Below the pieces are notes generated by a model. That model was not told where the DNA came from, ran no database searches, and worked only from the letters and a program-made list of their open reading frames with translations. The translations under genes were made by a program, and so were the position numbers. 64,000 nt of DNA, taken from contig RDOC01000002.1 of assembly GCA_011364985.1 (NCBI GenBank), positions 32,001 to 96,000 of the forward strand. The letters run 5' to 3'. Each line of letters starts with the position of its first letter. Within the stretch, counting starts at the first letter, position 1. Of the stretch, positions 55,351 through 61,894 are shown in pieces. The DNA comes from Candidatus Thorarchaeota archaeon. Lineage in GTDB: Archaea; Asgardarchaeota; Thorarchaeia; Thorarchaeales; Thorarchaeaceae.

Positions 55351-56389
55351 TGGTTACGATATCTCTAATGAGACCGCTGTGCACTCGGATTGGTATGTGA
55401 TAGGCGCATTTGAATCCAAGATCATTAGCAATCTCAGGTATTCTCATTTTGTTACTTCCAGCTATGCATAGCATTCCATTTGGCTTCAATATTTTGGGGA
55501 TTGCTGCAAGAAATTCGGTAACCAGATTAGTGGCCTCGCTACCCCTTGTTGAACTTGCTCTTCCGTAAGGGGGGTCAGTGACAATGCTATCGCAGAAATG
55601 TTGTGCGATAGGAGGAACTCGTGCATCTCCTTGTATCAGTGAGAAAAGGGTATGTTTCTGGTGAATGAGATTTAACTTGGAACCCATTAGTTGGCGCCAA
55701 TTCAAATCCATACCTATGGTTTTCGCACCCAAAGCTGCAAGTTCTAACAGAATTCCGCCACTCCCCGAGAAAGGATCATAGGCAATCTTTCCAGACATGA
55801 CGCCGGCGAGATTGCACATGACTCTCGCAAGTTGTGCGTTCATCATTGACGGATGAAAGAATGGTTTCTTGGCTGAGTTCTTGTTCATGAGTTTCTTTCT
55901 GCTATCAGACTTGTAGCTGCGACACACCTTGACACCATTTGAAGTCAATAGAACGAGAATCTTGGCATTTGGTCGTTTTGCATCAATCTTTGCCTTGGTA
56001 AGGTGTTTGATTTTGGTTCCAAGAAGATTAGTTATCTGTTGTCTATATTCATTCATACCTTTGGATACTAGGGATTGTGTACGAACACAGAATGTTTCGG
56101 TTGGCTGAATGCTGGATGCTAATTTCTTCTCTGGAATCCATTCTATATCTTCATTAAGAGCAGAAGATTCCGCGATTATGTATCCAGCTTCCTTAATCAT
56201 TGCTGCTCTGAAAAGAAGAAAAGCAAGATTATGTTTGCCTGTATTGAAGACAACTAGATTCTGATTCCAAGTTAATTCAGCTTCGAAATTCGCTAAATGT
56301 AGAATTGATTCGAATTCTGCCCGTGCAAGTGCTGGTTCTTCTCCAGACAAAATGGCAAAGCATTTGGTCACTAGCAAATCACTGCTCAC
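55340..56389 (-). CDS. THUMP-domain tRNA m2G10 methyltransferase (Trm11/Trm-G10)
   Basis: LSGE.P.LARAE, KPFFHPSMM, DPFSGSGGIL, TDPPYGR. Confidence 0.88.
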   Translation of the reverse strand: MSSDLLVTKCFAILSGEEPALARAEFESILHLANFEAELTWNQNLVVFNTGKHNLAFLLFRAAMIKEAGYIIAESSALNEDIEWIPEKKLASSIQPTETFCVRTQSLVSKGMNEYRQQITNLLGTKIKHLTKAKIDAKRPNAKILVLLTSNGVKVCRSYKSDSRKKLMNKNSAKKPFFHPSMMNAQLARVMCNLAGVMSGKIAYDPFSGSGGILLELAALGAKTIGMDLNWRQLMGSKLNLIHQKHTLFSLIQGDARVPPIAQHFCDSIVTDPPYGRASSTRGSEATNLVTEFLAAIPKILKPNGMLCIAGSNKMRIPEIANDLGFKCAYHIPIRVHSGLIRDIVTIRV

Positions 56390-57150
56390 ACAATTAAGTT
56401 ATCTCCTCCAAGAAATATTCTTTGCATTTCTCCATATAGAGACTCCATTCCTGACATTGATCTTGCTGATACGGGAATAACGTGACTCTCGTTTCCAATA
56501 TCATTTAGCATTTGGAGAATTGCGGTGGAGTATTCACGGACAAGGCCATCTGAGAATTCCTCAAGGACACCTTCAAGGAGGTAGGAATCATCTGACCAGC
56601 TTACAATCTCTTCGATCTGCTCTTCAATAAGAATGTCAGGTTTGCTAAGTATGTTGAGTTGGGGTAATACAAAACGTATGTGAATTGAAAGACCTAGAAG
56701 CATTGACGAAAGGTATCCAGCTGGAGTTCTGGCAATATTCGAATCAAGTAGATAGAGTGAAAGCGCTGGGTCTGCATCTCTGATACTTGAAACCATAAGT
56801 GGACCAGAATTTCGATAGGCAAAAAGCTCCATTTGTCCAGGGCAATCAACAATAACGTAGTCTCGACCCATTTCGATAATCTCTTCTCTGAGTTCTCCTA
56901 TTTGTCCCACAGCCATATCCAACGAAGCAACCAGTGCTCCATTTGGACCTAGATTGAAGCTATTCATGACTTCCCCATAATCAACATATTCCCTGATATC
57001 AATATCACTTGTATACGGAGGATTTTCAATTCCTGGATCCAGATTGACCACGGTCACGCTCATATCAGCTGTGACTAACCACTTCTCCAAAGAGGCAGTC
57101 ATCATGGACTTTCCGCTCCCAGCAGTACCAACTATGAAAGTGAAGAGCAT
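56386..57150 (-). CDS. GPN-loop GTPase
   Basis: GTAGSGKS, NLDPG, LGPNGAL, DCPGQMELF, LSKPD. Confidence 0.93.
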   Translation of the reverse strand: MLFTFIVGTAGSGKSMMTASLEKWLVTADMSVTVVNLDPGIENPPYTSDIDIREYVDYGEVMNSFNLGPNGALVASLDMAVGQIGELREEIIEMGRDYVIVDCPGQMELFAYRNSGPLMVSSIRDADPALSLYLLDSNIARTPAGYLSSMLLGLSIHIRFVLPQLNILSKPDILIEEQIEEIVSWSDDSYLLEGVLEEFSDGLVREYSTAILQMLNDIGNESHVIPVSARSMSGMESLYGEMQRIFLGGDNLIV

Positions 57151-58027: not shown

Positions 58028-59323
58028 GTGAACTTCGAAACAGAAATAAATGACCCGATTCATGGGTTCATTGGACTTACTGATATTGAAGCTAGAATAA
58101 TCAATTCCGAAACTTATCAAAGACTCAGACGGATAAAACAGCTATCAGGTGGTCACTTTGTCTATCCAACTGCTGAACATACAAGATTCGGGCATTGCAT
58201 TGGTGCAATGTATTTGGCCGGTATGATGGGCAGACGCCTTCTTGCTCCACTAGGGCTTGGAAATGACGCACTTCAAGAAGTTAGAATTGCTGGACTACTT
58301 CACGACATCGGGCATGGGCCCTTTAGTCACGTTTTTGAGGAAGTCCTTGTTGAACGTAGAGGATGGAATCATGAAGACGTAACTGAATGGATAATACGAA
58401 AAAGCGAGCTTGGTGAGTTGCTCGAATACGGTGGGATTTCGCGTAACCGAATTGCAGATCTTGTTCGTGGAAAACGAAAAAGAAAAAACGATTCGGTCGT
58501 TAGTTCAATAGTAGCAGGACAAGTTGATGCTGATAAGATGGACTATCTCATCCGAGACTCGTTTTACTGTGGAGTAAATTATGGCCTTGTTGACATCCAT
58601 CGCCTAATTAATAGTCTTGAGGCGTCTGATGACTTGATTCTTCAATTTGATTTGGCGGCACGTGGAGCTCTTGAATCATTTCTTGTGGCGCGCTATGAAA
58701 TGTTTCTCAACGTCTATTATCATAAAACCGTGCGAAGTGTTGAGATTATGCTTGTAAAAATGATGCATGCAGCAGATAGCGTTCTGAATTTGACAGGGTT
58801 TTCAACACCAGAGGAGTTTCTCTTGCTTGATGATATGTCGTTAATATCTCAAATCAGAAGAATAGACCCATCCGAATCGGAGAATGCAAAAGAGGCTGTG
58901 AAAATGGTGAGCATGTTGGATACAAGGACTCTTTACAAATCTGCATTTGAGAAAGTACTTCATACCGATGATCAATTCATTTCAAAGCTCCTTACAAAGC
59001 GAAAGGTACGTGAGAGTATTGAGGAAGAAATCGCAGAGGCAGCAGGAGTTCCATCTGAGAAGGTTATAGTAGATGTACCAACGCTTCCATCAGTGCCATA
59101 TGATCCTCATCAGCTCAATCCTATGGAGATTAAGATCTTTGAAATCGTTGATGGAAAAAAGATACCACATAATTTCTCGGAATATTCAAATATCGCAGAT
59201 ATGATGAAAGTATATCTTGATGTGATTAGAGTCTATACCTACGACGAACATCGAAAAGAGGTGGGACAAGCGGCGAGAGAAATATTCCAAGAAGTACCAG
59301 AAGCTGCTTTGATTCATATGTAG
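58028..59323 (+). CDS. HD-domain phosphohydrolase (SAMHD1-like dNTPase family)
   Basis: DPIHG, QRLRRIKQL, HTRFGH, LLHDIGHGPFSH, DADKMDYL.RD, VYYHKT. Confidence 0.92.
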   Translation: MNFETEINDPIHGFIGLTDIEARIINSETYQRLRRIKQLSGGHFVYPTAEHTRFGHCIGAMYLAGMMGRRLLAPLGLGNDALQEVRIAGLLHDIGHGPFSHVFEEVLVERRGWNHEDVTEWIIRKSELGELLEYGGISRNRIADLVRGKRKRKNDSVVSSIVAGQVDADKMDYLIRDSFYCGVNYGLVDIHRLINSLEASDDLILQFDLAARGALESFLVARYEMFLNVYYHKTVRSVEIMLVKMMHAADSVLNLTGFSTPEEFLLLDDMSLISQIRRIDPSESENAKEAVKMVSMLDTRTLYKSAFEKVLHTDDQFISKLLTKRKVRESIEEEIAEAAGVPSEKVIVDVPTLPSVPYDPHQLNPMEIKIFEIVDGKKIPHNFSEYSNIADMMKVYLDVIRVYTYDEHRKEVGQAAREIFQEVPEAALIHM

Positions 59324-59433
59324 TATTAAATCCAGAACAGCTGAAATCAACAGCAGAAAAAGGCTGTGTGGTGGTTATATAGTAAGCTCCTAGATTCTAC
59401 TTTGGACCAGCTAATAGGTCTGGAGCTGAATCA

Positions 59434-60381
59434 TTGACTAACGAACTGACTGAAACACTTCAGAACATTAAGATGATTACTGGCGTAGAAAATGTGGTCC
59501 TTATCCAAAAGGATGGTTTACCTGTGGCCAGTGCAGGAGTTTGGTTCAGCAAGGAGGAAGTCTTTGCCGTTGCATCTTCTACTTGTGCGATTTATGGGGT
59601 TGCGCGGTTAGTTCATGGCGATTTTGAGTATTTATTGATGGAATCAGAAACTTCCAAGGTGTTTCTTGCGTCATTACCCAATGATACTGATTACTTCCTC
59701 ACTGTTACTACAGCGCCGAGAGTAAATCTGGCTGCACTATTCATCGAAATGAAAGATAGTCTCTTCCGTGTTTCCTTCCTTTTACGACAACACATAGATG
59801 ACAGACTTCCTCCTCTACGTTCGTATAGCAATCATGAAACACAAAGAATATTGAAAGGCTTTTCAGTTGCTGAGGGACAAGATACTAAGTATAGCACCTC
59901 TAGATCAATAATCTCTTTTGATCGGTCTCAGGCCTTGGCACTTCGTGCGCTTTTGAAACAGGTACATGATAGCATTCCAAACACTGATTCTGTGTTTCTT
60001 TCACTTAATGGAGGGGTACGTTTGTCCTTGGAGGGATTTACAAATGATAGACTAGCAGCCATGTCCTTCGCTTTGCATGATGCATCTGAACGCGTTGTAA
60101 GAACATTGAGAAACGGCTCACTGCAGACCGTTCTTTGTGAAACCGAAAGCATACGGCATTTCATATATGCTGTGCCCAATGGTGTATTCAGTCTATGGGT
60201 TGATCGAAGTAGTCAGAAGCTTGGACTGATGCGTTTGTTACTCAAACACTACATTGAGGAGATTAGAAGAGTTTTACAGGCTTGTCATGAAATGAAATCT
60301 GCTGTACCAGACGACTTGAAGGAGCTGCTTCTCGGAGAGATAGGAAACGGCAGCATGATGCTTGCGAGGAGAGAACCATGA
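59434..60381 (+). CDS. Tandem Roadblock/LC7 (MglB/LAMTOR-like) domain protein
   Basis: Domain 1: GVENVVLIQKDGLPVAS...LTVTT.PRVNLAAL. Domain 2: SVFLSLNGGVRL...DRLAAMS.AL..ASER...KLGLMRL. Confidence 0.85.
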   Translation: MTNELTETLQNIKMITGVENVVLIQKDGLPVASAGVWFSKEEVFAVASSTCAIYGVARLVHGDFEYLLMESETSKVFLASLPNDTDYFLTVTTAPRVNLAALFIEMKDSLFRVSFLLRQHIDDRLPPLRSYSNHETQRILKGFSVAEGQDTKYSTSRSIISFDRSQALALRALLKQVHDSIPNTDSVFLSLNGGVRLSLEGFTNDRLAAMSFALHDASERVVRTLRNGSLQTVLCETESIRHFIYAVPNGVFSLWVDRSSQKLGLMRLLLKHYIEEIRRVLQACHEMKSAVPDDLKELLLGEIGNGSMMLARREP

Positions 60382-61298
60382 CATATTCTATAATGCGTTT
60401 GATTGAGTTGGTTGAAAATGATTTTCCTCTTTTGCTTAATGCAGTAATGAGCAGGCTGCCAATACTTGTTGCGGGGAATGATGTTGAGCTGGTTGATGAT
60501 GTGACGGAGAGTTTGAGCATGCTGGCCCCCCATCGTCATAAACTAGTGTTCTGGCGTGACTTCACGTCTGAGAATGAGATTTTGTCCGTGTGGGAAGAGG
60601 AAAAACATGATTATGAGGTGAGCAGAACAATTGTATGTGGTTTGTCCTCAAACCTCAGACTGGCCTTGGATAGAATCACTCGATTTGCGGGATGGATTTT
60701 GGGTATTCCACTTGGAAACACTGTTCTAGGTGTAGATGTGGACGATGGTTTGCTTCAAACAGTGATAAACAGAATTCTGCAAACATCTCAGAATTGCGGC
60801 ATCTTGCGTATTGATACTCCATCATCGATGAATTTCTCTTTGATAGAAACTCATCATAGCAGTCTTGACATTGAAAAGAGAATTGTAACTAAGATACTGA
60901 CTAGAAAGAAACAATCGCTTGAGAGAATAAGACGACTTCTAATGAAATCACTCAGAGGACTTGAAGTTTCCAATCATGTTGTTAATGCCATACTGAAATT
61001 GGATAATGAATCGGAGAAGCTTACACAGGATGTTTTTGATGAGGAGATAAGTAACTACGTTCACGCTGCACGAAGAGCTGTTACTCTTCTCTCAAGAATA
61101 AGGCTTGCACGGGAGTTGGGTGCATCGACATTTCTTACTGAAAGGAATTTGTTTGAGGCAATAGGTTGGGACAGTGGAGAACTCTCTGATTTGATTCAGC
61201 TCATTCACGCAGAATGGCATGAAGATTTCTCCGACTGTGTCAAGGCTGGTGCGCTTTCTGGACTAGGTGCATGGGTGGATAGTATGTGGGGAACATAA
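60378..61298 (+). CDS. DENN-like domain protein (putative GTPase regulator)
   Basis: LLLNAVMSRLPILVAGNDVELVDDVTESLSMLAP matches the helix-strand-helix start of cDENN cores; helical C-terminal half; ATGA overlap with the Roadblock gene. Confidence 0.55.
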   Translation: MTYSIMRLIELVENDFPLLLNAVMSRLPILVAGNDVELVDDVTESLSMLAPHRHKLVFWRDFTSENEILSVWEEEKHDYEVSRTIVCGLSSNLRLALDRITRFAGWILGIPLGNTVLGVDVDDGLLQTVINRILQTSQNCGILRIDTPSSMNFSLIETHHSSLDIEKRIVTKILTRKKQSLERIRRLLMKSLRGLEVSNHVVNAILKLDNESEKLTQDVFDEEISNYVHAARRAVTLLSRIRLARELGASTFLTERNLFEAIGWDSGELSDLIQLIHAEWHEDFSDCVKAGALSGLGAWVDSMWGT

Positions 61299-61315
61299 TG
61301 GAGGATGAGAATTAA

Positions 61316-61894
61316 GTGATTATTGATTATGGAAACAGAACGATTGGCCTGAAAATAGTCTTCTTTGGGCCTGCTATGAGTGGAAAGACGACAGCAATCA
61401 GATGGCTTTTCTCAAGTCTGGACTATGCAGAGAACTTGACCTCAATAGAGAATACTGTTGGTCGTACGATGTTCTGTGATTTTGGAACTATTCCATTCTC
61501 TCTTGGGGATAGTTGGACGATTAATTCACATATATGGTCTGCAACAGGACAAGATTTTTATCGCTCCACAAGAGAAGTTGTTCTTGTGGGAGCCGATGGT
61601 GTTGTGTTTATGGTCGATTCTCAAGAACACCTACTCGAAGAGAATCTTGCCAGCTGGAATGAGCTTATGACAATGGTTGCAGAGGAGGAACGTCCATTGC
61701 CAATAGTGGTATGTCTCAACAAGCAAGATCTGCCTAGAGCAATCAAAGAGGAAGAAATTCGGGCTCACCTTAGGCTTCCATCTTCGATTCCAGTATTTAG
61801 AAGTATAGCAAGTGAAGGGCAGAATATTCTTGAGGCCTTTCAGGTTCTATTTCAGAATGCAATGCGTGCCAATGTACTTGCCCAACCCTTGTGA
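61316..61894 (+). CDS. MglA-type small GTPase
   Basis: LKIVFFGPAMSGKTT, G2 RTMFCDF with intrinsic Arg, G3 SATGQ.FY, GADGVVFMVDSQ, G4 NKQD. Confidence 0.88.
   Translation: MIIDYGNRTIGLKIVFFGPAMSGKTTAIRWLFSSLDYAENLTSIENTVGRTMFCDFGTIPFSLGDSWTINSHIWSATGQDFYRSTREVVLVGADGVVFMVDSQEHLLEENLASWNELMTMVAEEERPLPIVVCLNKQDLPRAIKEEEIRAHLRLPSSIPVFRSIASEGQNILEAFQVLFQNAMRANVLAQPL

Follow-up and report, generated by a model that had tools for sequence, protein, structure and literature searches.

MglA and MglB of Myxococcus xanthus and Thermus thermophilus form a small GTPase switch. In MglA, Arg53 and Gln82 are intrinsic catalytic residues, and MglB acts on it as a dimer in a 2:1 complex, positioning these residues and supplying none (PMC3199381). 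The intrinsic Arg defines Group 1 MglA (PMC4316618). In eukaryotes, the longin-DENN complexes Folliculin-FNIP and C9orf72-SMCR8 are linked with Roadblock proteins and a small GTPase, and the GAP arginine finger of FLCN and SMCR8 is located in the longin domain. [quoted passage not shown] In the available text of this preprint, the operon is described as 'conserved in most Asgard archaea' with a GTPase distinct from Rag, and it is compared to folliculin/Ragulator, with a folliculin-like exchange-factor role proposed.

In this study, we analyzed a Thorarchaeota operon that encodes a tandem Roadblock protein, a DENN-like protein, and a small GTPase. The locus had been put forward as a candidate for an undescribed system, a claim overtaken by the earlier prediction of Liu et al. 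As far as the available text of the preprint goes, both descriptions share the same three components in one putative operon, a non-Rag GTPase, a wide Asgard distribution, and the folliculin/Ragulator analogy. They differ in that the GTPase here is assigned by sequence to Group-1 MglA rather than labeled 'Rab-like', the Roadblock protein is a fused tandem, and the DENN protein is without a longin domain. It is highly probable that the Thorarchaeota triad is the operon of Liu et al. This identity is not proven, because of the 'Rab-like' label, which we read as a loose one, and because a second operon type exists. The operon is thus very probably a further copy of one already predicted in print in 2020. 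No experimental study of it was found in a literature search that covered few subscription papers. MglA/MglB has a polarity or motility role, and longin-DENN complexes form a DENN heterodimer. The Asgard operon encodes a single DENN protein.

Organization of the operon

The window is the whole stretch of DNA that was analyzed, 64,000 nucleotides in length. Within it, the triad consists of three + strand ORFs in the order tandem Roadblock, DENN-like, and GTPase. Features are listed in window coordinates.

59375..59381, + strand: TATA-box-like TTATATA, probable operon promoter from sequence and conservation; a conserved G/T-rich motif precedes it
59434..60381, + strand: ORF1, tandem Roadblock/LC7 protein; TTG start, 315 aa
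60378..61298, + strand: ORF2, stand-alone protein with a modeled DENN fold; ATG start, 306 aa
61300..61304, + strand: GGAGG, ribosome-binding-site-like as judged from sequence, 11 nt before the GTPase start
61316..61894, + strand: ORF3, small GTPase, Group-1 MglA-type by sequence; GTG start, 192 aa

The coupled same-strand arrangement described in the original prediction was present in the sequence. ORF1 and ORF2 were joined by an ATGA overlap (60378-60381), ORF2 and ORF3 were separated by 17 nt (61299-61315) containing the GGAGG, and TTATATA was located upstream. The three protein assignments, Roadblock twice, DENN-like, and MglA, were borne out by Pfam, fold searches, and phmmer. The TATA element was found at a near-constant distance to the start codon in 27/27 aligned Thorarchaeota loci, and T21, T22, A23, A25, T26, and A27 of the upstream alignment were invariant in these loci. 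Since this spacing is nearly constant, the operon probably has its own promoter, and TTATATA, judged from archaeal promoter architecture, probably works as such. A sigma-70 promoter scan gave only a shuffle-level signal, and the sigma-70 model is not relevant to archaea. A candidate 5' hairpin near 59404-59421 was dropped because it was kept in only part of the family.

The host genome is 1.7 Mb and 74% complete, and the named close homologs of the operon proteins are for the most part from Thorarchaeota. Upstream of the operon, an HD-domain protein with weak dGTPase similarity is encoded at 58028-59323. Its gene adjoins the operon in most Thorarchaeota loci and does not in most other families. 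A candidate GPN-loop GTPase gene, recognized by motif, is located on the minus strand at 56386-57150.

The GTPase and the tandem Roadblock protein

When ORF3 was searched against the PDB with phmmer, MglA was matched with an E-value of 2.6e-30 and the best Rab, Rab7, with 4.3e-10. The E-value for MglA was thus lower than that for the best Rab by 20 orders of magnitude. The match to Gtr1_RagA reached only E 8.6e-5, and ORF3 is a single 192-aa domain distinct from Rag. The GTPase motifs were G1 GPAMSGKT, G2 GRT with the intrinsic Arg50, G3 SATGQ without Asp, and G4 NKxD. R50, T51, Q79, N135, K136, and D138 were invariant in 37 GTPase orthologs, with R50, T51, and Q79 aligning to R53, T54, and Q82 of MglA. 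The MglB-binding beta-2 stretch of MglA (Leu55, Phe56, Phe57, and Phe59) was kept as [LM]-F-[FC]-D-[FY]. The GTPase thus shares with MglA the intrinsic Arg beside the G2 Thr, the catalytic Gln, a G3 without Asp, the hydrophobic beta-2 stretch, and a Roadblock partner encoded upstream (PMC3199381, PMC4316618). G3 was SATGQ or TATGQ in 80/80 GTPase-anchored loci, and SATGQ differs at three positions from the TVPGQ consensus of bacterial MglA. Judged by these sequence features, the operon GTPase is a Group-1 MglA-type protein, neither Rab nor Rag.

A tree of 36 Asgard GTPases, with no bacterial rows and a midpoint root, placed the operon GTPases and three close paralogs on one branch (97/95) and the genome's own Rab-like GTPases apart from them (100/99). 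This genome also has a conventional MglA gene elsewhere, close to three genes for single-domain Roadblock proteins (G000 contig C16:141595-145214, L086). In three Thorarchaeota genomes, a close paralog of the operon GTPase has neither partner adjoining (L171, L172, and L179; 2501-3064). At these loci, the paralog gene follows a 640-aa ORF and precedes a 240-aa ORF, which we take, by eye, to resemble GTP cyclohydrolase II. Family f9 has a further MglA-like GTPase gene, which is convergent and located just downstream of the operon (L050-L053, L056-L059, L067:808-1494, and L068:684-1436).

ORF1 contained two stretches matching Pfam PF03259 (Robl_LC7; E 3e-10), with Roadblock domains at about residues 1-121 and 164-282. 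Its AF2 model (pLDDT 77.9, pTM 0.73) had two linker-joined Roadblock folds in one chain, whereas MglB is a homodimer. In an MglB-type dimer, the sheet runs on continuously and two helices form the face that binds the GTPase. Fold searches matched prokaryotic Roadblocks (Thor-RB), MglB, and LAMTOR2/3 about equally (Z 11.1-9.5), and there is therefore nothing specifically Ragulator-like in ORF1. It resembles Ragulator (LAMTOR1-5) in its paired Roadblock domains and its fold matches to LAMTOR2/3. It differs in that bacterial MglB and other prokaryotic Roadblocks match it equally well or better, and the Asgard operon has no Rag GTPase. By analogy with MglB, ORF1 is most likely a single-chain MglB-type GAP. 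In family f12 (G035, G059, G075, G081, G092, and others), a second tandem-Roadblock paralog was observed (E about 1e-85).

Fold of the middle protein

Sequence searches of Pfam, NCBIfam, and the PDB gave no DENN assignment for the middle protein, and its ferritin matches in the PDB sequence search were rejected as helical-composition noise. An AF2 model was built from a 55-sequence alignment and reached a pLDDT of 89.8. When the model was compared with 48,161 solved chains by VIA-align, the best six matches were all DENN proteins. These were DENND10 (Z 13.4, rmsd 4.0, 186 aligned), folliculin (Z 13.2 and 13.1), SMCR8 (Z 11.2), C9orf72 (Z 11.0), and DENND1A (Z 10.0). The match at Z 13.2, to the folliculin C-terminal domain, covered 187/199 residues, and the first non-DENN match was at Z 9.5. 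The best Foldseek match was FLCN, with a probability of 0.97 and a weak E-value of 5.7e-3. The fold matches to DENN proteins share only 10-13% identity. Atlas shape and feature searches returned SMCR8, C9orf72, and folliculin, and language-model features pointed to the C9orf72-like, SPA, Folliculin_C, and SMCR8_C clusters. A search of the own genome with Pfam Folliculin_C gave no match, but the controls were equally silent, which makes this search uninformative.

The model comprises an alpha/beta core at about residues 1-157, long helices at 164-246, and a helical C-terminal part, so that a core DENN alpha/beta domain followed by a helical d-DENN is present. It begins at the DENN core, and the longin (uDENN) domain is absent. 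Residues 1-282 align to folliculin 345-558 and therefore comprise the core and helical DENN parts with no longin. About 95 model residues are without a counterpart in the folliculin domain, and we infer that these are mostly the long helices 164-246. A search for longer fused homologs of the DENN-like protein found none, which is weak evidence. Among 58 homologs, R26, P28, F62, E75, R233, E279, and W304 were invariant. The C-terminal tail (window 61281-61295) was poorly predicted and contains an invariant Trp and a near-invariant Gly; from this sequence pattern, it is a candidate binding motif. A proposed amphipathic C-terminal helix was rejected as unsupported, with a mean hydrophobic moment of 0.29.

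The fold searches also returned secretion ATPases and clamp loaders, with P-loop ATPases at Z 9.5 and below, as would suit a degenerate P-loop/AAA+-like protein that is no DENN homolog. We consider this highly improbable. The ATPase matches mostly cover residues 1-160, whereas the DENN matches span 1-285 and rank higher. No Walker A motif was found in the 58 homologs, and Pfam Folliculin_C was weakly matched by three family members (best E 4.8e-4). ATPase matches of this kind are expected, since the known topology of the DENN core resembles a P-loop fold but lacks the residues that bind nucleotides (PMC3521125). On the evidence of the model, the middle protein has a DENN fold without longin, in agreement with the original prediction of a DENN-like protein. 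It shares the core and helical DENN fold with Folliculin-FNIP, C9orf72-SMCR8, DENND1, and DENND10 (Z 10-13.4). The likeness to Ragulator and FLCN/SMCR8 drawn in that prediction is loose, as the GTPase is MglA-type rather than Rag and there is no longin.

Other DENN-like proteins were observed outside this family. In the ESM Atlas, two clusters resemble the model, one archaeal (282 aa, TM 0.51) and one bacterial and mostly of Chloroflexota (289 aa, TM 0.49). Both are possible further prokaryotic DENN-fold families. Stand-alone proteins of 294-397 aa were weakly DENN-like (L072:2165-3097, L073:2347-3228, L075:2040-3017, L079:2066-3037, and L074:2873-4063). Their similarity to the DENN-like family starts further into the protein, and two of them had weak Folliculin_C or DENN Pfam matches. 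By sequence, they are probably of the longin+DENN kind that Liu et al. report, as far as it is described in the available preprint text.

Conservation and proposed mechanism

The conservation of the triad in related genomes was examined in two surveys. The DENN-anchored survey contained 73 locus rows, 67 of them distinct. Roadblock, DENN, and GTPase genes stood in this order in 65/67 distinct loci, one of the others being cut by a contig end and one split. The triad was also found in 76/80 GTPase-anchored loci, where one was cut and three were paralogs. A strong DENN-like match was obtained in 82/151 phylum genomes and a tandem Roadblock gene in 86/151. Both genes occurred in the same nine of 25 Asgard families, and the other families that were searched among the 151 genomes gave no match to either. 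Compared with the 'most Asgard' in the available text of Liu et al., this spread of 82/151 genomes and 9/25 families may or may not qualify, as 'most' depends on sampling. The genes flanking the triad vary between families, and the triad itself is kept at 25-45% identity between them, although kin loci are not independent. Gene order kept in distant families with different flanks indicates that the adjacency is not due to chance, and retention at this level of identity argues for a functional unit.

A second operon type was found in family f19 (L092-L097) and in one genus of f12 (L098-L100 and L102). It encodes, in this order, a single Roadblock protein (177-194 aa), an MglA-type GTPase, and a shorter DENN-like protein (237-296 aa), which matched the ORF2 family at a profile probability of 91%. 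In some GTPases of this type, the intrinsic Arg is replaced by His.

The DENN-fold gene between the Roadblock and GTPase genes distinguishes the operon from MglA/MglB. An ordinary mglB-mglA pair could be co-transcribed with a DENN-fold gene whose product works elsewhere, for instance with a different one of the many small GTPases in the cell, or as a downstream MglA-GTP effector. In G140, the Roadblock and GTPase genes adjoin (L081:474-2091) and the DENN-like gene is alone on another contig (L054:1504-2397). The own genome contains at least five Rab-like and other MglA GTPases, and variable third genes are common in MglA systems (PMC4316618). We nevertheless regard this arrangement as improbable. 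The DENN gene lies between the pair in nearly all loci of nine families, the families that have it are those with the tandem Roadblock gene, and the divergent second operon type again unites Roadblock, MglA, and DENN-like genes in another order. On sequence and conservation, we consider it fairly probable that the triad is an MglA/MglB-type GTPase switch inherited together in Asgard archaea, with a DENN-fold protein as its third subunit.

In the proposed switch, GTP hydrolysis would very likely rely on Arg50 and Gln79 of the GTPase itself, as in MglA. The double-Roadblock chain would replace the MglB dimer and, as is likely by analogy, act as a GAP that binds the GTP-loaded GTPase and brings Arg50 and Gln79 into position. 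For the DENN protein, we lean towards a non-catalytic accessory subunit, which may be a scaffold, co-regulator, or localization factor. As part of this leaning, the Roadblock partner would offer the GTPase a binding platform, the part played by longin in eukaryotic DENN modules. By default, the output may be presumed to be spatial or membrane-associated control, as in other MglA switches. Without longin, ORF2 also lacks the arginine finger and the GP motif of that domain, and its client is MglA-type, whereas longin-DENN complexes serve Rag, Arf, or Rab. Since the arginine finger sits in the longin domain, which is absent here, and the GTPase has its own, a folliculin-type catalytic role for the DENN protein is unlikely.

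The self-contained GAP/GEF/GTPase switch of the original prediction fared differently in its two parts. The GAP role of the Roadblock protein is well supported by homology, and the GEF role of the DENN protein is an inference only. As a true exchange factor, the DENN protein would act on the GTPase possibly with the Roadblock protein as a longin in trans. DENN modules are Rab GEFs, and Roadblock domains are related to longin domains and resemble them in how they bind GTPases (PMC3521125). DENND1A and DENND10 were among the best fold matches, and the genes are tightly coupled. In the DENND1B-Rab complex, however, the GTPase is contacted by all three domains including longin (PMC3521125), which ORF2 does not have. 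Not every one of the closest folds (folliculin, SMCR8, C9orf72, and DENND10) is a GEF, as folliculin and SMCR8 work in GAP complexes. The GTPase here is also of the MglA type, whose switch mechanism differs (PMC3199381). We therefore think an exchange factor doubtful. A complex prediction of Roadblock, GTPase, and DENN with DENN as partner gave a score of 0.01 (mark 0.32), which is evidence neither way.

In a bolder form, to which we give a low probability, the DENN protein without longin and the double-Roadblock chain would make up a split two-chain DENN module. For an MglA GTPase, this module would be a GAP platform and an exchange factor at once. If this is true, the split module would be a living pre-fusion state of eukaryotic longin-DENN regulators. 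It would also show that DENN first evolved on MglA/MglB, being seen in two operon types whose genes are ordered differently.

The operon itself is no discovery. What is added here is modeled structural support for a longin-less DENN fold, a sequence-based Group-1 MglA assignment with predicted catalytic residues intact, and the matched distribution of the partners together with a second operon type. As the GTPase is assigned to Group-1 MglA rather than 'Rab-like', the prediction changes: catalysis would be intrinsic and the Roadblock protein likely the GAP. GTPases and their regulators are hard to pair in Asgard genomes (PMC10933270), and the operon offers a matched GTPase and regulators. Its value is that of a compact test system of three small soluble proteins. 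It has been proposed that eukaryotic longin-DENN regulators arose from the MglB-MglA interaction (PMC3521125). Possibly the DENN core worked at first in an MglA/MglB switch, which would bear on this proposal, and the operon thus bears on the origin of eukaryotic GTPase regulators.
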